Counted from the stretch's first letter, positions 1-9,718 are shown. The stretch: 10,180 bases of DNA from a virus (IMGVR_UViG_3300011952_000009); one strand, 5' to 3'. A program made the numbers and translations. The notes: generated by a model from the sequence alone, not told the origin.

Positions 1-1806
1 ATCCATATAAACATCTGCCGCAAATCCCAGATGAGATAGTGCTTTGACGGTGGCATCAGTAAGAGACTTTTTGGAGGCCTCTTTTTCCATTACCAGTGCC
101 CCTTTGTTATTTTTTGATATGTAATCCGTGTGGCCATATGACGGAATAAATCCTTTCACTCCGTTCCAGATGTACCAGAGATCTATCCGGATGGTGTGTA
201 CTGACAGGCAGAACAGGGAACCGTCAGCATCCCTGACAGGTTTTTGTCCAATAATTTTCCCTGTCTGATCCTGTATAGGTTCAAGTAATGGCACACCGCG
301 ATCCACTCGCTCCTCCTTGATNNNNNNNNNNGCACCGTAATCACTATGTGTGACATACGCAGGATCGGTCCGCTGAACGCGATTCCAGATAGCCAAATTT
401 GCTTTTCTCTGGTCATCATTCATTGCTGACAGATAATGCTCCATGCGAATTGATGCAGTTTTTTCCTCGGCATGGGGCGGCTCAACCAGCGCGTCAACGT
501 TCTGCACCAGATCCTTTACCTGCTCGCTAAGTTTTTCTTGTGGAGGAGTCTCTTCTGCCGGGGTAATAGCTGCAGGTTCCCTCTGTGAGACGGCGTTATT
601 TTCAGGTACGTCATACACATGGCGAGGCGTGATAAACTGCTCACGCAACTGCTGCAAACTACGTTCTCCAGCATTTGCAGCTTCGCTTTTTTCACCCTGA
701 TTTGAGGGTGTTTCTGACATCATCCCATCAATTGAGAATCGCCCGCCGCCGTGGTTGGTGACTTTTACATCATCCTTTGGTGCTGCTTCCTTTGACTTCT
801 CTTCAACAGCATTTGCATCACGCTGCCCGTTAGCTTGCAGCCAGTTGTCGATGTGACTGCGCAGGGATTGCGGGAAGTGGTACGTGTCTTTTGCGGGGGC
901 GCTCTGAATAACACCGAATACTGATGCGCGGTCATAGGCAAGGATCTGATCCGTTGTGCGCAAGGCCATTGACCAGCGTTTAAAATCCTCCCGATCCTGG
1001 CTGATTATTTCGTCTGCCGCTTTCAGGGCGCTGGGGGAGATTTTTTCCGGGCCAACGGGTAACAGAGCGCAGGCAATTTCACGATCCAGTGTAGCGTGAG
1101 TCTGTTTGTAAGGACGTGCGGACGGTTTTACCTCCGGCAGCATTTCATCGCGTTTACCGGGATTCTCTACCCATTTTTTTATAAATTTGGAGATAGTCCA
1201 ACTGGTCGGGTTTTGTTCCTGGGTATCGCAACTTGCCAAAATTGCATGTACCAGATTATTCAATCCAGCAATATGCATGTACTCGATGGGCTTACACGCC
1301 ACCATGGCATCAAGAACGATGCGGTTAAACGCGTCAACCTCATCCTCACTGTCAGTATCACTGTTGTCGAGCATCTCCAGGTATTCACGCGTCTGCGCAA
1401 GCAATTCACTGTCGACTTCGTTGGCGTCGTGGCTGAACAGCAGAACGGCGGCGAATCGTTCACGAGCCGGCAGTTTCATCAGGTCGTTAACCTGTGCGAT
1501 ATCTGCTGAACCGCTATCTACAACGGGGGTGTTAACTACCCATTTTTCGCCATCAAAACTGTGTTCTGTGGCGAACGTCTCATCAAACTCACCAACGCCT
1601 GGGCGCGGTTGGCCCAGGGCATCTTCCCAGATTTTAGGTTTGAAATAGTTGTCGCCGTGGTCAGGGTAGGCTTCCCACAATTTGCCGATGATGATGTTCT
1701 CGGCAACTTTTTTGTTAGGGGCGTCGATGGCGATGGCCAGCGCCGGGATCGCGCCGTTTTTGAGCGCGCCTTTTTTCGCTTCTAACAAGCCGTTAAAAAT
1801 GGTCAT
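1..1806 (-). CDS. Large multi-domain early protein, partial (continues beyond window start). N-terminal ~330 aa unrecognised, then an acidic Pro/Glu/Ala-rich linker, then a C-terminal segment (window positions ~1-440) resembling ERF-family ssDNA-annealing proteins
   Basis: ATG at 1806-1804 preceded by GAGGAAAGACC. Minus frame checked triplet by triplet: no stop from 1806 to position 1, crossing the N-run 322-331. Absent from the ORF track, presumably because it has no stop in the window. Track ORFs 183..419, 443..700, 1096..1509, 1187..1648, 1260..1463 and 1561..1785 are other frames or antisense of this ORF. ERF resemblance is to P22 Erf recalled from memory (GVPLL and K-A-L-x-x-L-G-F motifs with ERF-like spacing). 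Confidence 0.6.
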   Translation of the reverse strand, partial: MTIFNGLLEAKKGALKNGAIPALAIAIDAPNKKVAENIIIGKLWEAYPDHGDNYFKPKIWEDALGQPRPGVGEFDETFATEHSFDGEKWVVNTPVVDSGSADIAQVNDLMKLPARERFAAVLLFSHDANEVDSELLAQTREYLEMLDNSDTDSEDEVDAFNRIVLDAMVACKPIEYMHIAGLNNLVHAILASCDTQEQNPTSWTISKFIKKWVENPGKRDEMLPEVKPSARPYKQTHATLDREIACALLPVGPEKISPSALKAADEIISQDREDFKRWSMALRTTDQILAYDRASVFGVIQSAPAKDTYHFPQSLRSHIDNWLQANGQRDANAVEEKSKEAAPKDDVKVTNHGGGRFSIDGMMSETPSNQGEKSEAANAGERSLQQLREQFITPRHVYDVPENNAVSQREPAAITPAEETPPQEKLSEQVKDLVQNVDALVEPPHAEEKTASIRMEHYLSAMNDDQRKANLAIWNRVQRTDPAYVTHSDYGXXXXIKEERVDRGVPLLEPIQDQTGKIIGQKPVRDADGSLFCLSVHTIRIDLWYIWNGVKGFIPSYGHTDYISKNNKGALVMEKEASKKSLTDATVKALSHLGFAADVYMD

Positions 1807-1836
1807 TGGTCTTTCCTCATTACAGGTCAGTGGTCT

Positions 1837-2157
1837 TTAGTAGGGGATTTCATCAGTATCTGGCGTGTATTCGATGCAAAGTAACTGCTGGATTTTGTCA
1901 TCGATAGCAGCAATACGCTGTTGGGCGTCGGCGGCTGTATTCTGTTTTTGCTCACGCAGCTGCTCAACCTGTAAACCGATGATGTCGATTGGCTGGGGCT
2001 GGTTGACGGTAATTTCAATTTCGCGGCTTTCCAGAAGGATGTACCTGTCTGGAAAATTTTTTGACATATCAACTGTCGCAATAAACAGCTTTTCATGGCT
2101 GAAAGTTGAAGTTGCATAATGAATAAAGAGTGTTACTGGGATGGTGCGCGCTTCCAT
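1837..2157 (-). CDS. Hypothetical 106-aa early protein with an acidic, coiled-coil-like C-terminus
   Basis: ATG at 2157 with AAGGAG about 6 nt upstream; stop 30 nt before the next gene's start in the same operon; protein-like composition. Function not recognised. Confidence 0.6.
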   Translation of the reverse strand: MEARTIPVTLFIHYATSTFSHEKLFIATVDMSKNFPDRYILLESREIEITVNQPQPIDIIGLQVEQLREQKQNTAADAQQRIAAIDDKIQQLLCIEYTPDTDEIPY

Positions 2158-2241
2158 AGCGACTCCTTGGTGATGTATACTCAGAACCGATCAGCGAATA
2201 TTGATCAGCTTCCATAGCGTCAGTGTCGTTGGTCTTTCCTC

Positions 2242-2265
2242 ATCACAAGTTTGGTCACTTGTGAT
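2242..2265. other. Perfect 9-bp inverted repeat ATCACAAGT / ACTTGTGAT with 6-nt spacer TTGGTC (RNA hairpin or protein-binding palindrome)
   Basis: Read directly from sequence; lies in the leader about 85 nt upstream of the 106-aa gene start on the minus strand; no U-tract follows on either strand. Confidence 0.45.
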
Positions 2266-2386
2266 AAATCCGAATGGTTTGGTCGCCGTTCGGGGTAACT
2301 GGCCCGCCTTGTGCGGGTCTTTTGCTATCTAAAGGGTGCCGGTTACGTTTCCGGCGTCGTCATGTTTCCATCACGACCGTACAGGG

Positions 2387-2461
2387 CTGGTCTTTCCTGT
2401 TTTGAGCTGGTCAGGCTCATGGTCAACGCTGGTCAGGCGTGGTACTTCCTCCGGTCTTTCC
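2387..2461. repeat. Periodic array of four GACC-core repeats at ~20-22 bp spacing (plus strand GGTCTTTCC, GGTCAGGC, GGTCAGGC, GGTCTTTCC)
   Basis: Repeat starts at 2389, 2409, 2431 and 2453. Minus-strand readings (GGAAAGACC, GCCTGACCAGC) match the motifs found at three gene starts elsewhere in the window. Confidence 0.5.
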
Positions 2462-2531
2462 CTGGTTTCACGCTGCGGGTTTGGCCTCTCCTGTTGGGGA
2501 CTCAGGCACAGCGATAAAACCTGGCTGTGTG

Positions 2532-2559
2532 AAAAAATGGCCCATCGTGCGGACTGGGC
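2532..2559 (-). terminator. Weak terminator-like hairpin (GCCCA, 10-nt loop, TGGGC) followed by a U6 tract on the minus strand
   Basis: Stem at 2540-2559 and T-run at 2532-2537 read on the minus strand. The large loop and an enclosing 7-bp stem (GCTGTGT/ACACAGC) make this uncertain. Confidence 0.25.
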
Positions 2560-2583
2560 AAAGACTAAACACAGCAAATTGAT

Positions 2584-2608
2584 GATGGGCGCCCGGAATC
2601 GAACCGGG
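2584..2608 (-). ncRNA. tRNA-like 3' half: T-arm CCCGG-TTCGATT-CCGGG plus a 7-nt acceptor-like strand; not a canonical tRNA
   Basis: Minus strand reads ACCCGGTTCGATTCCGGGCGCCCATCATC. A perfect 5-bp stem with 7-nt T-loop consensus is present, but no CCA in register and no D-arm, anticodon arm or clean 7-bp acceptor partner was found upstream. Confidence 0.3.
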
Positions 2609-3005
2609 TAACGGGCAGGGAGTTCCCGTTAAACACCTGTTCACCACAACCGGGAGCGCACTCCGCCATTTCAAAATTTAACGACAAAGCTCAAAGTTGA
2701 GTCGATGAAGTGCGCTCTCGTGTTGTAGCCAGGACTCTTCCCTGGTGGTCACACCGTATCGCCTTGATGGTGAATCAATCGCTCATACCTGGCTGTGGCT
2801 TGCACATTCCGGCTACCTGCTATGGAGACAACGCGTTAAGGCTCCGCTTCCATCCAGACCGCTTCGACACATGTGCCATATGCCGGTGAAGTCTTTCCCT
2901 CTGTCACCGTGTTGGCGCCGACGCGCAAAATTTGGTGCCGTCTTTCCGGCTGTCAGAACTTGTTTCTGAACAACTGCCGCTGGGTAAGCGTTGTTGATGA
3001 AAGTG

Positions 3006-3034
3006 ACTTTACAATTTGTATTTGTAATGGTCAA
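3006..3034 (-). promoter_or_regulatory. pL-like leftward promoter (-35 TTGACC, 17-bp spacer, -10 TAAAGT on minus strand) overlapping 19-bp palindromic operator TTACAATTTGTATTTGTAA (3009-3027)
   Basis: Hexamers read on the minus strand at plus 3029-3034 and 3006-3011. Operator half-sites TTACAA and TTGTAA are exact reverse complements with a 7-bp spacer. Confidence 0.5.
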
Positions 3035-3118
3035 TGTGTTTTTAAAAAATAATTTGTAGTGAGGGACAAAAAAATATTCACTGTGTAAAGGTGTTTTTGT
3101 GTTAGGGGAAAGTTGCAT

Positions 3119-3134
3119 GCCAGCAGCGGCTGGC
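3119..3134. other. GC-rich hairpin GCCAGC-AGCG-GCTGGC, 19 nt downstream of the repressor stop
   Basis: Perfect 6-bp stem with tetraloop; no adjacent U-tract, so a terminator role is uncertain. Confidence 0.35.
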
Positions 3135-3152
3135 CTGGAAATTTGAACTGAA

Positions 3153-3566
3153 CTATTTTGTCTGGTTTTTGGCTTCAAGTAGTTCTTTTAGCAGTAGATC
3201 GAAGTGCTCTCTTTTTTCTTTTAGCTCATTGATTAGTTTGTTTTTTTCGCTCTCAGGCAGTCCTCTGAATAGTTGCAGTAGAGCCTGTTCTTGCGGGGTT
3301 AGTTCTTGATTGTAATTACCGGGGTGTAGCGTGGATTCATCCAAATATTCTCCTTCATTCATGAAGAAAAAATGAACAGGGTATCCGGTCACTTTTGCTA
3401 GCTTGTCTAATTTATCTTTTCTTGGAGTTACCCCATTACACCATGCCTGAACTGATTGAGCTGTAACCCCAATATGGCGAGCTAACTCAGATTGAGACCA
3501 GCCTAAGTCTTTTAGAATCCGTTGTAGTCGGCTAGCAAAAGCCATGTTTTTCGTTTTTGTGTTCAT
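3153..3566 (-). CDS. Prophage repressor, DicA-like (N-terminal HTH, C-terminal dimerisation region, no S24 peptidase domain)
   Basis: HTH segment LGWSQSELARHIGVTAQSVQAWCNG. C-terminal LTPQEQALLQLFRGLPESEKNKLINELKEKREHFDLLLKELLEAK resembles the DicA C-terminus as recalled. Divergent from a Cro-like gene and flanked by palindromic operators. Track start 3581 is a TTG; ATG at 3566 (or 3545) is more likely. Confidence 0.85.
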   Translation of the reverse strand: MNTKTKNMAFASRLQRILKDLGWSQSELARHIGVTAQSVQAWCNGVTPRKDKLDKLAKVTGYPVHFFFMNEGEYLDESTLHPGNYNQELTPQEQALLQLFRGLPESEKNKLINELKEKREHFDLLLKELLEAKNQTK

Positions 3567-3585
3567 ACCGTAAGGATACAAGGTT

Positions 3586-3619
3586 TAATTGTAGGGAGCA
3601 TTGCAAATATAATTTGTAA
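3586..3619. promoter_or_regulatory. OR-like operator/promoter region: TTGTAG(3589-3594), TTGCAA(3601-3606), TTGTAA(3614-3619); perfect TATAAT at 3607-3612 on plus strand
   Basis: Palindrome TTGCAAATATAATTTGTAA at 3601-3619 has the same TTRCAA-N7-TTGTAA architecture as the left operator. Sits between the divergent repressor and cro-like genes and is truncated by the N-run 3629-3638. Confidence 0.5.
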
Positions 3620-3659
3620 TTACAGTTANNNNNNNNNNCAAGACAAACTTCTTTCAGTA

Positions 3660-3854
3660 ATGAGACAATCCGAGTTAGGTCGGCGATTAGGGAAAAAACC
3701 ACAAACTGTGAGCCTCTGGTTCAAAGGACGGGTTCCCGGTGAAGAGGTTTTGCGCACATCTGAAGCTCTTGAATGGCGCGTGACCCCTCATGATCTTAGA
3801 CCGGATCTTTACCCAAACCCAGATGACAGCTTGCCTAAAACGGAAGCAGCTTAA
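3660..3854 (+). CDS. Cro/YdaS-like small HTH regulator; true 5' end probably lies in or before the N-gap 3629-3638
   Basis: Track ORF; HTH-like GRRLGKKPQTVSLWFKGRVP. Frame is open back to the gap edge at 3639 and there is no SD before ATG 3660, so the N-terminus is probably missing. Confidence 0.65.
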   Translation: MRQSELGRRLGKKPQTVSLWFKGRVPGEEVLRTSEALEWRVTPHDLRPDLYPNPDDSLPKTEAA

Positions 3855-3912
3855 CTGTTGGTGAGCCCCAAATCTGATTAAGCGTAATCAATTTTTAGCG
3901 ACAGGAGACGCT

Positions 3913-4389
3913 ATGGAAAACCCAGAGGAATTACAAAAAGAGATTTTGACCTGGGCGGCAAGGGCAGGGCAGGAACTCGTCACGATTGAAATCTGCCGGG
4001 CCTGGTTCAGTCAGGGACGCAATGATGAGTTGAGACTACATGAATTTGAGGACGCGGACGGCAATGTGGACTGGAGAGCCATCAACAACAATCGGCAGAA
4101 AATCTTTCGCTGGTTACGTGGCGAGACAACGGCGGCGCGCCGAAAAACTCAGGTGCTGGCCAGTGTGATGAAAGCCGTGCTACCCGCAGAACGGCGGGCG
4201 CGTCTGGAGTCGCCGGGCGATCCCGTTTTGCTGGCAACGCTGGCGGCAAAAGAAGGGGTGGAAGCGATTAACGCTGTACATCTCCACTTCGCGCCAGAGA
4301 TAACTATTCAGGAAATTGACGAAGCAATAGCGGCGCTGGTAGCGACGCGAGGGGCAGTGATAAGCACTGCGCAAGGCCACCATGCATGA
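3913..4389 (+). CDS. YdaT-like protein (functional CII analogue in CP-933P-type prophages)
   Basis: AGGAG 5 nt before ATG 3913; positioned directly after cro as in repressor-cro-ydaT modules; motif NRQKIFRWLRGET resembles the YdaT family as recalled. Confidence 0.6.
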   Translation: MENPEELQKEILTWAARAGQELVTIEICRAWFSQGRNDELRLHEFEDADGNVDWRAINNNRQKIFRWLRGETTAARRKTQVLASVMKAVLPAERRARLESPGDPVLLATLAAKEGVEAINAVHLHFAPEITIQEIDEAIAALVATRGAVISTAQGHHA

Positions 4390-4428
4390 GCGCCTGACCA
4401 GCGTTTAACTTATACCGAGGAAAGACCG

Positions 4429-4653
4429 ATGTTAAGACATATTGACCGCATTACCTGGCGTAACGGCTGGCACCTGAATGGGCGCCCGGCACATGTTGCA
4501 GAGATCCAACCTATTTTTGATGGGCGTATGGCTGCCGCGCTTTCGGTGTGGGAGCAGTATGAATCCAGGAAGGTCGAGTTGCGCGACAAAGGGCTGAGCA
4601 ATGCGGACTATGAAGCCGGTTGTCGTCAGATAGCCGAAGCTCTGGAGATCTGA
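4429..4653 (+). CDS. Hypothetical 74-aa protein
   Basis: ATG 4429 preceded by ACCGAGGAAAGACC; its stop TGA 4651-4653 sits 2 nt before the next gene's ATG. Confidence 0.6.
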   Translation: MLRHIDRITWRNGWHLNGRPAHVAEIQPIFDGRMAAALSVWEQYESRKVELRDKGLSNADYEAGCRQIAEALEI

Positions 4654-4655
4654 GT

Positions 4656-5690
4656 ATGAGTCGTTTGCTGATTAACGAAAACCCCCTTCAGGTCCTGCCC
4701 ACGTTGGCATGCACTATAGGGTTGAATGAAGCCATCGTTCTACAGCAAATCCACTACTGGCTGAATTCATCTCAAAATTTCTTCGAAAATCGCCACTGGG
4801 TGTACAACAGTGTGACCGATTGGCAAGAACAATTCCCGTTCTGGAGCGAGTCGACAATAAAACGCGTGCTGGCCAATCTGGAAAAATTGAATGTGGTATT
4901 TACTGGGAACTTTAACAGTGATGCCTGGGATAAAACCAAGTGGTNNNNNNNNNNCCCAGTTATGTAAGATTGAAGAGACAACATTCCCTGTGGCCAATCG
5001 ATTAGGTCAAGTTGACCCAATCGAAGAGGTCAATGTGACCCAAGCATCAGGTCAAGTTGACCCATGCGCTAAGGTCAAAATGACCCAATCTCTTACAGAG
5101 AATACAACAGAGAGTACTACAGAGATAAAAGATCCCCCTTACCCCCAAAAGGGGGAGGGCGAGGAAATCATTCTCGCTGACGCTCAAAAAGCTCTGAACT
5201 ACTACAACGAGAAAGTCGGTACACGCTGCCGCGACGTTAAACCGTTTGTCATGCTGCTGACTGCCACCACCACCCGCGCTGGTTACAGCGTGGCTGAGAT
5301 TCAGTTAGTAATTCGTTGGGTTATTGCGACATGGCGCCGTCGTAGCGGAAGCGTGCCGAAACCTGCGAACATTTGCCGCGTAAACCGGTTTGACGGATAT
5401 CTGGCTGACGCTGAGGCGTGGGCCACTGCTGAGGCTGCCGTTGACCCTGCTGAAGTTGTGAAGGGCTACAACGAGATTCTGGGCGACCTGACCGCCGTCG
5501 GGCAATCCTGCGCCTGCTGGCACATATGCGCACGCAAACTCTTGGCGCATTTATCGGCTACTTCGAAAAATTCCGCGATAACGCCCCAGACTTCTATTTC
5601 GGCGGCGAATATCGCACCGGCTGGCGGGCAGGGTTTGATTACCTGATGAAGCCAGAAACACTGCGTAAAACCAGGGAAGGGGCATTATGA
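4656..5690 (+). CDS. Replication initiation protein, lambda O-like / replisome organiser, with the origin inside the gene; reading frame changes at the N-gap 4945-4954 and again near 5455-5505
   Basis: ATG 4656 with GGAG 8 nt upstream. N-terminal HTH-like segment (track 4620..4967), middle part in track ORF 4891..5646. The last ~60 codons are more protein-like in another frame (AILRLLAHMRTQTLGAFIGYFEKFRDNAPDFYFGGEYRTGWRAGFDYLMKPETLRKTREGAL) ending TGA 5688-5690, which overlaps the helicase ATG 5687 (ATGA). Confidence 0.7.
5004..5087. repeat. Replication origin iterons: four copies of AGGTCAANNTGACCCA at 22-23 bp spacing, followed by an A-rich tract (5088-5140)
   Basis: Copies at 5004-5019, 5027-5042, 5049-5064 and 5072-5087; each has internal dyad symmetry (GGTCA/TGACC); located inside the O-like gene as in ori-lambda. 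Confidence 0.75.
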
Positions 5691-7035
5691 ATCCAGAAGA
5701 ACTGGAAGCGATCGTTCTCGCTGGTCTGATTAACGGTGGTGCGACGCCTGACGCGTTTGATGTGATTGCCACTACTCCGGAGGAAGCCTTCAGCATCGTG
5801 TTTCACCGTCGCGCTTTCAGCGAAATCAAAAAGCAGGCACTGGCGAACGGCATGATCGACATGTTGTTTATCAGCGAAGCGCTGGGCGGTTCCAGCCTTG
5901 CGGATCTGTCTCAAATATCCCGGATCCCGGCAACGGTACCGAATCTGAAAGGCTATGCCGGGAAAATGGTGCGGGCATGGCGGAGCCGCAAAATGGCGGC
6001 ATTGTTGCAATCTGGCGCGGATGGTATCCGTAACGCTGTAAACCAGAGTCAGCGTGATGAGGTTATTGAATCTCATGTTGCTCAGGTGCTGGATATGAGC
6101 GCCGCTACCGGCACAGTCCAGCCGGTACACATCAAAGAGCTGTTACCGCTCTACATTGACACCGTTGATAAACGGATGTCTGGTGACGCGCAGGAAATGA
6201 TGCTGAAAACCGGAGTCGAGGATCTGGATGTCGCCCTGGGCGGTATCAACATGACCGACCTTGTTGTGGTTGCCGGTCGTCCAGGCATGGGGAAAACGGA
6301 ATTTACCCTGAAGATTATCGATGGCGTTACCGCAGATGGCGGCGGCGCACTGTTTTTCAGCATGGAAATGGGCGCTCAGCAGATTGTTGAACGTACCGTT
6401 GCCGGGGCTGGGAATATGTCCACGTCGCGTCTGCGTAATCCAAAAGAAATGGACGATGAGGATTTGACCAGATTAACCGCCGCGCTTGCAATCATGCAGG
6501 ATCGCGATATCTGGATTGTTGATGCCACTGATTTGACGATTGAGCAGATCCGCGCCATTGCAGAGACTCATAAACGCCGTTATCNNNNNNNNNNGCCGAG
6601 CGCCACGATCTCGCTGTCGGGCATATCTCCCGCAACATGAAGACTATGGCCATGCGTCTGCATACCCCTGTTTTTGCTCTTAGCCAGCTTTCCCGCCAGG
6701 TGGATTCTCGACCTGCTGGCCAGCGTCGCCCGGTGATGTCGGACCTGCGCGATTCCGGCAGTGTTGAGCAGGACGCTGACAGCATTTTGTTTTTGTACCG
6801 CGCTGAAGTTTACACACCTGATTCACCTGCAAAGGGTATCGCCGAGGTGATTATCGGTAAAAACCGTTCTGGCGGGGCAGGTGAAATTATTTATCAGGAA
6901 TTCCGGAATGGGCATTTCCTGCCAATTGATCAACACGTAGCACGCGAAAAATTACGCATCCAGAAGGAGGCAGAGCAACCGAGAAAACGTGAAAAACGGT
7001 ATTCAAACAAAAACTTTAATACGGACCCATTTTAA
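5687..7035 (+). CDS. Replicative DNA helicase, DnaB family (phage P22 gp12-like), interrupted by N-gap 6585-6594
   Basis: Walker A GRPGMGKT; after the gap, ALSQLSRQ, SDLRDSGSVEQDADSILFLYR and IGKNRSG motifs. Track ORFs 5687..6640 and 6637..7035 are two parts of one gene; the frame difference across the gap implies the gap length is unknown. Confidence 0.9.
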
Positions 7036-7073
7036 CCACGCATGACCAGCGTGAAATAACCGAGGAAAGACCA

Positions 7074-7484
7074 ATGACCACCATTTCAGGCAAATTAGAG
7101 TACCCGTCGGACAAAGGACACATAGACGACGGTAAAAACTATCTCGACGTCATTTTGTGGAATATGAACGCCGGGCCACGTGCGCGCACTCGTGCGGTTT
7201 TTGTACCAAGACCCAAAGCAGGCAATTTTTCAACACCAGCTCAGCCTGCCCGTCAGGCATCCGTAGCCGCAGCGCCAGCAGTGAAATGTAAGGGTAAAAC
7301 GCACATCGGGATCGCGATTCGCAGAAATGGTGAGCGGCAAGTGAAACTCCACGAAACAGCGACAACCTGGTGTGCTTCACCGCATGAAACTTACGACAAG
7401 ATAACCGGGCAGCGCATTGGTGCGCCTGGTCGCTGTCGCCTGCTGTTGAGCTCCATCACTCCGATAGAAAAGAAAGGGGCGTGA
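7074..7484 (+). CDS. Hypothetical 136-aa basic protein
   Basis: ATG 7074 preceded by ACCGAGGAAAGACC; track ORF; function not recognised. Confidence 0.65.
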   Translation: MTTISGKLEYPSDKGHIDDGKNYLDVILWNMNAGPRARTRAVFVPRPKAGNFSTPAQPARQASVAAAPAVKCKGKTHIGIAIRRNGERQVKLHETATTWCASPHETYDKITGQRIGAPGRCRLLLSSITPIEKKGA

Positions 7485-8030: not shown

Positions 8031-8248
8031 AAGAACTTTTTCTGGCATTTGTGCCCCGGTTTATTAATGACCAGATCGCACTGACTGATAATGGTGAACA
8101 ATATGAAATTGCCTGCAGCATGGTGGATGTGAATCCTGGCGAACGGTATGACGCGATGTGNNNNNNNNNNTTTACCTGGCTGGGTTGGGCTATTCCGTGT
8201 GGAGAACCAACCAATATTCGCCCATTTGAGAGCAGGGAGGCTGTATGA
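8027..8248 (+). CDS. Hypothetical small protein (contains N-gap 8161-8170)
   Basis: ATGA overlap with the upstream gene; same frame open on both sides of the gap. Confidence 0.5.
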   Translation: MKELFLAFVPRFINDQIALTDNGEQYEIACSMVDVNPGERYDAMXXXXFTWLGWAIPCGEPTNIRPFESREAV

Positions 8249-8361: not shown

Positions 8362-8435
8362 TTGCGGAGTGACGTAAAACGAATCTTTGTGGGTGTAATA
8401 TCGTCAATATCATTGGTTTCCCGGAGGGAAAGGAC

Positions 8436-8657
8436 ATGTTTGGCGATAAACTGGAGTTACCACGGAACGGGCGGATAGTGCTCTATATTTCAGATTACAA
8501 AGTAACCAGGGCTGAGGTGTTGGAACCGGAAAAACATCTGGTCACGTTACCGGACATTATTGAGTTGTATAAGCGGGTCGGATATGTGGACTTGCATCGC
8601 GATGATGTTCCCGTTGAGTGTATGGAATGTGAACACCGGAGGTTTGAAGTTGATTGA
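8436..8657 (+). CDS. Hypothetical 73-aa protein
   Basis: GGAGGGAAAGGAC before ATG 8436; track ORF. Confidence 0.6.
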   Translation: MFGDKLELPRNGRIVLYISDYKVTRAEVLEPEKHLVTLPDIIELYKRVGYVDLHRDDVPVECMECEHRRFEVD

Positions 8658-8658
8658 A

Positions 8659-8687
8659 TTGACTTAGAAAAAGCCCGGGGCTATAGT
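8659..8687 (+). promoter_or_regulatory. Strong sigma70 promoter: -35 TTGACT (8659-8664), 17-bp spacer, -10 TATAGT (8682-8687)
   Basis: Read directly; both hexamers 5/6 to consensus with optimal spacing; predicted start site about 8694-8696. Confidence 0.55.
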
Positions 8688-8747
8688 TTCCGCGCAGCCG
8701 CAAAATCGGTTGCCGGGATTGGCGTCCCGGATATCTAAGTGACGCAT

Positions 8748-8768
8748 AGCCGCGTTAGCGGTTTTTTT
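8748..8768 (+). terminator. Rho-independent terminator: stem CCGC/GCGG (extendable to 6 bp), loop GTTA, then T7
   Basis: Stem 8750-8753 / 8758-8761, T-run 8762-8768; about 60-75 nt downstream of the predicted start site. A second hairpin CCGGGA-TTGGCG-TCCCGG lies at 8713-8730. Confidence 0.55.
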
Positions 8769-8929
8769 ATGTGTTAGGCACGGCCACATTCGCATTATGG
8801 TGGGCTGTGTGGGGGCTTCTGCGGAAGCGCCGGGTTCACTTAGCCGGTTACGCCAACCCTGCACAGTTCACCACCAGATGATTGGCGTCGCTGGTGGTGA
8901 TGAAAAAAACACTAAGTGAGGCCACTGCG

Positions 8930-9718
8930 ATGACAATCCAAATATCTGCGGAATCCCTTTCTCCGCTACATCATAACCAACTTCCCGTCATCACTACTGA
9001 ATTGCTTGCCAGTTTGTATGGCACGGAAGTAAATGGTATCCAGCAAAACTTCAAGCGCAACATCGCCAGATTTGTCGTAGGAAAGCATTTTTTTAAGCTG
9101 GAAGGTAATGAATTACGCGACTTCAAAAACAGACTGACAGATAGTCAGTCAGTTGCTAAACATACCCGATCCCTCATTCTCTGGACAGAACGCGGCGCAG
9201 CTCGCCATGCCAAAATGCTGGAAACAGAACAGGCCTGGGAAGTTTTCGAAAAGCTGGAAGATTGTTATTTTAGCCAGCGTCCAGAGAGGCGGAGTACAAC
9301 TACCGATGACCGTACTCCCTTACGTGATGCCGTTAATATGCTGGTCGGTAAGAAAGGCATGATGTATCCCGATGCCTACACCATGATTCATCAACGCTTC
9401 GCCGTCTCTCACATAGAACAACTGTCACAGACGCAAATGTTAGAGGCGATTGAATACATCCACTGCCTGCTACTCGATGAAAATCAGCCAACCATTCCAG
9501 ATTTTTCTTTTATCACCACTATCAAAAATGGAAAAGTGACCAGGATGCGCCATGTTGCCAAAGGCGAACATCTGATGACGTTTGACGCTTTCAAAGAGAT
9601 CGCTGAGCGGGCAGGGTATCTGGTGATCCACAGCGACAACCTGCGAAGTATGACACTGGATAAATTGATGGTAATGGGGAAAAAGTCTGCTGTATCTGTT
9701 GCTGATTCAGCATTTTGA
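8930..9718 (+). CDS. ORF6N-domain protein (phage antirepressor-like) with an unrecognised C-terminal domain
   Basis: N-terminal LASLYGTEVNGIQQNFKRNIARFVVGKHFFKLEGNELRDF...LILWTERGAARHAKMLETEQAWEVFEKLEDCYF fits the ORF6N pattern as recalled. GAGG 8 nt before ATG 8930; track start 8882 is a TTG and ATG 8900 is an alternative. Confidence 0.75.
   Translation: MTIQISAESLSPLHHNQLPVITTELLASLYGTEVNGIQQNFKRNIARFVVGKHFFKLEGNELRDFKNRLTDSQSVAKHTRSLILWTERGAARHAKMLETEQAWEVFEKLEDCYFSQRPERRSTTTDDRTPLRDAVNMLVGKKGMMYPDAYTMIHQRFAVSHIEQLSQTQMLEAIEYIHCLLLDENQPTIPDFSFITTIKNGKVTRMRHVAKGEHLMTFDAFKEIAERAGYLVIHSDNLRSMTLDKLMVMGKKSAVSVADSAF

Follow-up and report, generated by a model that had tools for sequence, protein, structure and literature searches.

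Temperate phages are known to direct RNAs against their own genes, as with the CI RNA of P4, C4 of P1, sar of P22 and OOP of lambda, each serving one gene or one leader. The CI RNA of the satellite phage P4 pairs with the seqA and seqC sites in the early leader and shuts off the early (replication) operon. The boundaries of phage modules have a literature of their own: the modular theory of lambdoid phages is reportedly owed to Susskind and Botstein, and linkers at module boundaries are said to figure in it and in comparisons of HK620 and HK97. P22 sar and lambda OOP, short antisense RNAs that end in a terminator, come from the regulatory regions of their temperate phages and modulate the choice between lysis and lysogeny (PMC12197685).

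Here we describe a stretch of 10,180 nucleotides (nt) from the virus IMGVR_UViG_3300011952_000009, hereafter the window, with positions counted from its first letter and strands given as (+) or (-). It covers the early regulatory region of a lambdoid-type E. coli prophage. A short sequence, GAGGAAAGACC (the tag), recurs in it at the starts of early genes, where it may be preceded by a small hairpin (tag and hairpin together: the cassette), and further copies lie in the untranslated leader of the early-left transcript. A candidate small RNA (sRNA) complementary to the tag is predicted on the strand opposite to this leader. Our reading, with slightly better than even confidence, is that the cassette is a shared target site of the sRNA and that the extra leader copies are decoys; the tag would then most likely let one RNA control all tagged early genes together.

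A tag shared by early gene starts

The tag occurs exactly at 1808-1818 (-), 2231-2241 (-), 4417-4427 (+) and 7062-7072 (+), and with one mismatch at 2389-2399 (-), always oriented in the sense of transcription. Shuffling predicts 0.14 occurrences, and none of 200 shuffles reached five; the recurrent gene-start cassette pointed out in a sequence-only reading of the window is thus real and non-random. At the gene starts at 1806, 4429 and 7074 the tag ends 1 nt before the ATG. Cassette A, on the minus strand, consists of CTGACCTG (1830-1823), TAAT, the tag (1818-1808), A and the ATG (1806-1804) that opens an exonuclease-family gene. In cassette E the tag (4417-4427, +) is followed by G and the ATG (4429-4431) of a 74-amino-acid (aa) gene, and in cassette F the tag (7062-7072, +) is followed by A and the ATG (7074-7076) of a 136-aa gene. 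A second motif, TGACCAGCGT, was found exactly at 970 (+), 2426 (-), 4395 (+) and 7043 (+), with 0.58 copies expected. The longer identities reported from the sequence-only reading were recovered as well: the 19-mer GAGGAAAGACCAATGACCA occurs without a difference at 7062-7080 (+) and 1800-1818 (-), making an exact 19-bp inverted repeat with its arms 5.2 kb apart, and the 15-mer CGCCTGACCAGCGTT is common to 4391-4405 (+) and the minus strand, where its true position is 2425-2439, one nucleotide from that first given.

All copies resembling GGAAAGACC (8/8) lie on the sense strand of the diverging early operons, which argues for a function in RNA, or one coupled to transcription, and not in replication; cassette E is on the plus strand although it lies left of the origin. 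In many unrelated early genes the tag forms the Shine-Dalgarno region, 0-7 nt (mostly 0-1) ahead of the start codon, with 8-11 nt between its GAGG core and the ATG, as is proper to a Shine-Dalgarno sequence. Its conservation far exceeds the needs of a ribosome-binding site. The suggestion of a shared translation-initiation or regulatory element, also made from sequence alone, therefore holds up, given the position of the tag before many early starts and a complementary candidate partner RNA. The hairpin loop, the leader copies at 2231, 2389 and 2453 (with the weaker ones at 2890 and 2939) and the RNA gene predicted on the opposite strand go beyond what that reading had noticed. A related, diverged tag, GGAGGGAAAGGACATG (8414-8438, +), stands at the start of a 73-aa gene at 8436, and is predicted to pair poorly with the sRNA seed on the sense strand.

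In cassettes E and F, as in two of the leader copies, TGACCA forms the core of a 7-nt loop (C/A-UGACCA), carried on a stem of 4-5 bp that begins 0-3 nt past the upstream stop codon. The hairpin of cassette E (4387-4407, +), directly after the stop of the ydaT-like gene, has the stem AGCGC/GCGUU (up to 7 bp) and the loop CUGACCA at 4394-4400, and is present in both the minimum-free-energy and the centroid predictions of RNAfold. That of cassette F (7037-7053, +), 1 nt past the helicase stop, has the stem CACGC/GCGUG and the loop AUGACCA; cassette A of the window is predicted to form no stable hairpin. Among copies and relatives the stem reads AGCGC/GCGUU, CACGC/GCGUG, GCGC/GCGC, GGCGC/GCGCC or GAGC/GCUC, and in relatives selected by their helicase the cassette F stem interchanges between ACGC/GCGU, GCGC/GCGC and CACGC/GCGUG around a constant UGACCA loop core. 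The stem covaries: in 47 distinct hairpins from relatives, pair 3 is CG in 38, AU in 7 and UG in 2, pair 4 is GC in 33, AU in 5 and GU in 4, and the sense strand has 10 G.U versus 3 A.C.

A candidate small RNA antisense to the early-left leader

The leader piece 2160-2355 was aligned from 25 distinct relatives. GGTCTTTCCTC is invariant in this alignment, and on the plus strand all sequences have one common architecture, with two hairpins of freely changing stems and fixed loops (TTGGTC and TTTGGTC) and a third, GC-rich hairpin followed by a T-run. The terminator and its U-run are present in every homologue, the run amounting to 6-7 U in distant ones. In the window the candidate sRNA spans 2225-2329 (+), antisense to the part of the early-left leader that is free of open reading frames (ORFs), and comprises an unpaired seed, UUGGUCUUUCCUC (2229-2241), hairpin 1 with the loop UUGGUC (2242-2265), hairpin 2 with the loop UUUGGUC (2270-2293), and a terminator hairpin (2301-2319) with its U-run (2320-2323); a terminator scan also found 2301-2323, on the sRNA's own strand. 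The 5' end would lie upstream of this span, perhaps at about 2188, and the predicted RNA would be roughly 105-150 nt long, ending at 2320-2323.

In 45 distinct homologues, 94.5% of the cells in paired positions are paired, compared with 81.2% in shuffled and 39-55% in slid controls, and compensatory changes are seen in 18 of the 27 pairs. Helix 1 is 100% paired, 8 of its 9 pairs being compensatory, and helix 2 is 93.8% paired with abundant G.U pairs. None of 500 shuffles matched any of the five measures. The 45 sequences had been fitted to the covariance model, and an independent MAFFT alignment gave the same picture. We place the sRNA on the plus strand because its many G.U pairs would be A.C on the other strand (examples are UG in 36/45 and GU in 17/45 homologues); in helix 2, one pair is U.G in 19 of 19 sequences, with further G.U or U.G at several others. 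RNAalifold gave -31.1 kcal/mol for the plus strand versus -18.1 for the minus strand, the plus strand was the more stable in 12 of 12 single-sequence folds, and the window sRNA with a 5' extension to 2188 folds with z = -7.4. A pairing of the seed with the 3' arm of the terminator, proposed by RNAalifold on the plus strand, was replaced by the terminator hairpin, which the single-sequence folds and the model-based alignment support.

The covariance model found one strong match (65-127 bits) in 83 of 100 sources, all other matches scoring 20 bits or less, and the window sRNA scores 122 bits. The seed is invariant and predicted to be unpaired in relatives. A pattern scan independent of the seed revealed no homologue with a different one, all true homologues sharing it, and its other matches were unrelated coding sequence or simple repeats. 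Upstream of the sRNA the sole conserved promoter-like element is TATACT (2176-2181, +), which resembles a -10 box; 64 distinct upstream contexts retain TATA[C/A]T between variable flanks, among them Pseudescherichia loci that lack the neighbouring gene start. TTCCAT was ruled out as a -35 element, since it stands anywhere between 12 and 18 nt from TATACT. Window-type sRNAs carry an extra segment of ~17 nt (2196-2218, +) that separates the seed from the -10-like box, an apparent duplication around GATCAGC, where relatives without it have a short 5' hairpin instead (e.g. CAGAGCC/GGCUCUG).

Rfam (release 15) returned nothing at E<=1 for 2225-2329 in the window, and for the sRNA of one relative (locus L004) only Trp_leader, at 20.9 bits versus a threshold of 41. 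RefSeq annotates the sRNA in none of the 449 E. coli genomes that hold it, ST131 included, and a literature search found no paper on it, the motif strings giving only unrelated primer matches. A 2025 review of phage sRNAs has no similar RNA among those it covers (PMC12197685). Since the sRNA is unannotated in RefSeq and absent from Rfam, a new RNA family could be defined from the alignment.

Predicted pairing of the small RNA with the cassettes

The seed UUGGUCUUUCCUC is the exact complement of GAGGAAAGACCAA and can pair with 12-17 nt of each cassette, across both the Shine-Dalgarno sequence and the start codon. For cassettes A and F the duplex is 17 bp and takes in the AUG, in cassette F as 17 contiguous pairs with sRNA positions 2225-2241, one of them U.G; with cassette E it is ~15 bp. 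The predicted seed duplexes have energies of -32.7 (A), -31.7 (E) and -31.3 (F) kcal/mol versus a background of -12.6 +/- 4.1 (standard deviation), and in a scan of all 40-nt stretches on both strands of the window the three tagged gene starts rank first as trans sites. The sRNA loops (U)UUGGUC are furthermore complementary to the GACCA of the cassette loop. In the latter, C-U-G-A fits the YUNR U-turn motif, which is characteristic of antisense recognition loops that pair rapidly. The coding sequence of many tagged genes opens with ATG ACC, so that a full cassette carries up to three GACC(A) units, and the sRNA three UGGUC units.

Tag copies and hairpins in the leader

The early-left promoter (TTGACC, 17 nt, TAAAGT; 3034-3006, -) would transcribe the leader, an ORF-free stretch of ~840 nt (2160-3000), together with copies D, C and B and cassette A. 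Copy B (2231-2268, -) comprises the tag at 2241-2231 and, before it, a hairpin with a GACCAA loop; the sRNA seed and hairpin 1 have their perfect cis-complement here. Next comes ACG in the window but ATG in many relatives, where it opens a small ORF (MPTESTLIGSEY...) overlapping the beginning of the 106-aa gene. Copies D (GGAAAGACC, 2461-2453, -) and C (CAGGAAAGACC, 2399-2389, -) flank two hairpins with CUGACCA loops (ACGC/GCGU, 2440-2426; GAGC/GCUC, 2418-2404), and they look like decoy sites because no ORF follows. Weaker copies occur at 2890 and 2939. The leader also presents GGAAAGAC in two hairpins with GAAAGA hexaloops closed by G-C (GCCG-GAAAGA-CGGC, 2950-2937, -; GAGG-GAAAGA-CUUC, 2901-2888, -), within the first ~110 nt of the early-left transcript, a block that is conserved among relatives with quite different promoters and operators (immunity types). 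The stems of these hairpins covary (GCCCG/CGGGC, GUCUG/CAGGC, GCGG/CCGC), with G.U on the sense strand, and the complete phage OM816834 has six GGAAAGAC sites in 660 nt of leader. At 2335-2358, just beyond the sRNA terminator, relatives carry a third GAAAGA-loop hairpin (GCCGG-GAAAGA-CCGGC, sense strand); the window's copy is lost, because an indel altered its loop (GCCGGAAACGUAACCGGC).

Several further features of the leader deserve mention. In relatives, a strong intrinsic terminator (GCCCGGGcgcCCCGGGC plus 7 U) follows only ~165 nt past the early-left promoter, after the conserved 110-nt block, and the window leader carries an insertion of ~300 nt; the coordinates for leader and terminator are 5440-5275 (-) in L004, 33130-32710 (-) in OM816834 and 2999-2530 (-) in the window. 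A put-like cis element for early-left read-through is a possibility. A leader mini-ORF with the full tag, GAGGAAAGACCAATG ACC AAC GGG CAT GAC CAG CCC TGA (MTNGHDQP), was seen in L004 (5155-5129, -), and others in relatives. Positions 2530-2580 (-) of the window and 5274-5375 (-) of L004 show homology to the host small RNA RprA over its 3' half, with the terminator (AAUUUGCUGUGUUUAGUCUUUGCCCAGUCCGCACGAUGGGCCAUUUUUU) included; in two diverged relatives this stretch reaches 37-38 bits in Rfam, under the threshold of 70. Its GUCUUU is partly complementary to GGAAAGAC, and the leader RNA might mimic RprA or compete with it. No tRNA or tmRNA was found in the leader.

Occurrence among relatives

An exact-pattern scan found the cassette, whose presence at gene boundaries of related phages had been put forward as a check by the sequence-only reading, in 115 viral-contig stretches. 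It stands at the same two places, behind the ydaT-like gene and behind the helicase, with different coding sequences around it. In the loci fetched, an ATG lies within 0-7 nt of the motif in 207 of 264 distinct contexts, with 89 different N-termini, and in 176 of these 207 contexts the ATG opens an ORF of at least 30 aa. In the post-helicase spacers of relatives selected by their helicase, the tag 11-mer is exact in 19 of 20 distinct sequences, and the adjoining spacer is freely variable. The tag is also found in relatives before a DUF4224 gene adjoining the integrase. Two phages that have a 46%-identical helicase and are without the sRNA have no exact copy of the motif. In OM816834, a complete phage of 43.9 kb, all six cassettes are in sense orientation and in the early region (28.6-37.1 kb), with none in late genes; for five of them an annotated start comes 1-2 nt later, and an ATG follows the sixth.

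The sRNA lies 0.8-2.6 kb upstream of cassette E in all 72 of the cassette-ascertained loci with enough flank. An RNA-based pattern, checked with the covariance model, identified it in 11 species of Enterobacterales, namely Escherichia whittamii, Citrobacter murliniae, Raoultella lignicola, two Pseudescherichia, five Serratia and Rosenbergiella, while the model discarded nine pattern matches from other phyla. At most of these species loci the 8 kb fetched include tagged early genes, and sRNA and cassette co-occur in Escherichia, Citrobacter, Raoultella, Pseudescherichia, Serratia and Rosenbergiella. The element is present in ~8% of complete E. coli genomes (449/5426), including ST131. Among cultured phages, the sRNA, leader and cassettes were found only in L152 (OM816834.1) and OM816835.1, deposited as Stenotrophomonas phages BUCT708 and BUCT709, and no other cultured phage has a similar leader sequence. 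The early region of these two is ~76% identical to Enterobacterales prophages, and their coding-sequence notes point to Klebsiella-type loci (HMPREF0484, AM404); the Stenotrophomonas host label may deserve a check.

Proposed mechanism and alternative explanations

If the cassette is a target of the sRNA, the RNA would bind it, perhaps through an initial loop-loop contact, and would cover the Shine-Dalgarno sequence and the AUG, so that ribosome binding would be blocked on all tagged early genes at once. In a lysogen the sRNA would silence leaky early transcripts. Upon derepression the leader, with ~5 gene-less sites that match the seed and one perfect antisense site, would titrate the sRNA and sharpen the switch. 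Threshold behaviour is known for sRNA regulation. As conserved islands between variable genes, the cassettes would also become the points at which recombination exchanges modules, which we read as a consequence of their conservation.

A number of observations weigh against this proposal. The sRNA is a prediction from sequence, and so is its expression; its promoter would be a -10-like TATA[C/A]T with no conserved -35, which scores under the threshold of the promoter scan. In the window variant the 17-nt duplication may, by the predicted fold, pair with the UGGUC part of the seed. The cassette hairpin is optional, being present in only 112 of 287 distinct cassette contexts, and the spacing of loop and tag is 25-28 nt in the targets versus 22 nt in the sRNA. 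An antisense RNA over one copy of a repeated site is automatically complementary to all the others, for which reason action in trans is not implied by complementarity. Seed and cassette are both invariant, and covariation between seed and target is nearly absent: the sole case is S. aquatilis, where the seed ends in CCUU and four of four cassettes start with A or U, not G, and a change in locus L011 is one-sided. No covariation was detected between the 5' flank of the sRNA and the second codon of the targets, in a comparison whose regular expression also caught antisense copies of the cassette. Finally, the co-occurrence of sRNA and cassette could come from shared descent in one phage lineage.

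The cassette may alternatively be a strong ribosome-binding site with an intercistronic hairpin, spread by recombination as a linker, in which case the RNA would act only in cis on the leader copy that it overlaps, or control the next gene (orf106); we judge this possible and on the whole unlikely. It accords with the good Shine-Dalgarno core and spacing of the tag, with the optional hairpin and with complementarity in trans as an automatic by-product of a repeated site. Mosaic joints also fit: similarity blocks between relatives begin at 4380-4399 (92 high-scoring segment pairs, HSPs) and end at 7060-7099 (68 HSPs) and 1800-1839 (47 HSPs), and in the relative L121 the sequence follows the window type without a difference through GAGGAAAGACCaatgacc, after which a different gene comes, a clean joint. 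The sequence-only reading had offered a linker for modular exchange; the coincidence of joints and cassettes stands, as a correlate only, and the sample is biased because most loci were ascertained by the cassette. A pairwise test of upstream against downstream identity had its thresholds too near the identity of unrelated sequences. What a linker with a ribosome-binding site accounts for poorly is an 11-mer invariant from E. coli to Serratia before 89 N-termini and next to variable spacers, which is more than translation needs, together with the clustering of ORF-less extra copies in the leader and a seed that is unpaired and invariant while the sRNA stems vary freely.

Alternatively, the GAAAGA loops, the GACCA loops and the tag might bind a protein, whether an N-like antiterminator, CsrA (through GGA motifs) or a phage protein not yet described that binds RNA and regulates translation, which we consider improbable. 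The leader hairpin GCCCG-GAAAGA-CGGGC does resemble lambda boxB in its size and purine loop, the relatives' terminator past the early-left promoter needs read-through, and every copy is on the sense strand. However, no sense boxA is found near either promoter: the consensus YGCUCUUUA has 4 matches versus 3.7 by chance, none of them in sense near an early promoter or beside a GAAAGA or CUGACCA hairpin. Nor is an N-like candidate apparent, since Pfam gives nothing relevant for the early ORFs and no arginine-rich, N-like N-terminus was seen in the ORF list of the window, phage genes to the left of the window lying outside its scope. The early-right side is without a GAAAGA hairpin, the tag at gene starts is linear and not a hairpin, and protein binding leaves the structured, terminated opposite-strand RNA with its strand-specific G.U pairs unexplained.

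A DNA element, be it an inverted-repeat site of recombination or inversion, a Chi-like hotspot or half-sites for the origin-binding protein RepO, could draw on the exact 19-bp inverted repeat across 5.2 kb, the mosaic joints at cassettes, the origin iterons at 4989-5078, which carry GGTCAAnTTGACC and contain TTGACC, and the resemblance of the complement CGCTGGTCAG to the Chi-type GCTGGTGG, yet is very improbable in our view, since the Chi-like match is just 6/8, orientation tracks transcription and not replication (cassette E being left of the origin on the plus strand), stem covariation with wobble pairs indicates RNA, and the inversion of 1819-7061 raised by the sequence-only reading finds no support, its predicted recombinant junction being contiguous in 0 of 453 complete E. 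coli genomes carrying the element.

Genomic setting of the window

On the left, the long exonuclease-family/hypothetical gene that starts at 1806 (-) measures 737 aa in locus L001 and is preceded by the 106-aa gene (2157-1837, -). Operator-like palindromes lie at 3009-3028 and 3601-3620. Beyond the leader and the early-left promoter comes a CI-like repressor (3581-3153, -), followed on the plus strand by a YdaS-like Cro (3660-3854) and the CII-like YdaT gene (3913-4389; TGA stop at 4387-4389). The replication module starts with the 74-aa gene (4429-4653, +) and continues with RepO and its origin iterons and a DnaB-type helicase ending at 7035 (TAA at 7033-7035, +); the 136-aa gene (7074-7484, +) and small genes come next, and an isrK/C4 RNA and an antirepressor gene stand at the downstream end of the gene order. 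In E. coli NZ_CP123244 the same element is integrated beside tRNA-Ser and mtfA.

The iterons, of origin type and within RepO (4989-5078, +), are repeats of ~22-23 bp based on GGTCAAnTTGACCCA. A P1/P7-type immunity-I module at 8681-8878 (+) matches the c4-a1b1 targets (52.9 bits), isrK (80.4 bits) and the C4 antisense RNA (74.5 bits), all three exceeding the Rfam thresholds, and is followed by an ORF6N-type antirepressor-like ORF (8882-9718, +). The window also contains five runs of exactly 10 N (323-332, 3629-3638, 4945-4954, 6586-6595 and 8161-8170), which fall in the exonuclease-family gene, the operator region, RepO, the helicase and a small gene; the ORFs of the ORF list are split there.

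Comparison with known systems

Should the proposed targeting of the cassettes by the sRNA be correct, a single RNA would correspond to one standard tag that several early genes of the two operons carry and, in addition, to untranslated leader copies, providing compact co-regulation of a regulon and setting the threshold of induction; the leader sponge would free the tagged genes only once early transcription passes that threshold. It would also explain the identical short boundary sequences of mosaic phages, an old observation in lambdoid phages. A broader reading, which we rate as rather unlikely, is that a family of Enterobacterales prophages has a layer of RNA control independent of repressor specificity, made up of an invariant sRNA, a tag on recombination, replication and, in relatives, integrase-adjacent genes, and a leader sponge. 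Since RNA and tag are identical despite different operators, a resident prophage could on this reading also silence incoming heteroimmune relatives by an RNA-based cross-immunity.

The cassettes share with lambdoid linkers that they are short conserved boundary sequences where mosaic joints fall, and differ from them in having a predicted RNA partner, in their strict strand polarity and in their occurrence inside a leader without a gene boundary. As in lambda nut and HK022 put (PMC9378689), conserved small hairpins, here with a boxB-like purine loop, lie early in the early-left transcript and upstream of a terminator; unlike in those systems, no boxA was found and no N-like protein among the early ORFs of the window, and the motif recurs as a linear ribosome-binding site at gene starts. 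By the features compared, the leader element is not a nut site. With P22 sar and lambda OOP the candidate has in common that it is a short terminated antisense RNA in a phage regulatory region, whereas sar and OOP each act on a single overlapped gene and have no multi-gene tag.

The systems closest to the one proposed are P4 CI with seqA and seqC and P1/P7 C4 with its a and b boxes, and the candidate sRNA belongs to neither family. The C4 RNA of P1/P7 (RF01695, RF03163) is likewise a structured phage RNA, the loops of which pair with two short boxes near a ribosome-binding site and block translation. C4, in contrast to the RNA proposed here, controls one gene (ant), and its a1/b1 and a2/b2 targets are adjacent on the same transcript. 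The sRNA is not a C4 RNA, as it gives no C4 match while a real C4 is found 6.5 kb away, and at least three gene starts plus the leader copies are matched by it. For P4 CI, no sequence similarity to the sRNA was found and Rfam gave no match, in a comparison that did not extend to the P4 sequence itself. Common to both systems would be a small phage RNA that recognises short, repeated complementary sites in the early transcript of its own phage, several per genome and some located where leader ORFs begin translation, and that thereby shuts off the early operon. While P4 CI is processed from the sense leader and acts mainly by premature termination, the RNA proposed here would be encoded antisense with a terminator of its own, and its targets would include the ribosome-binding sites of the opposite operon.

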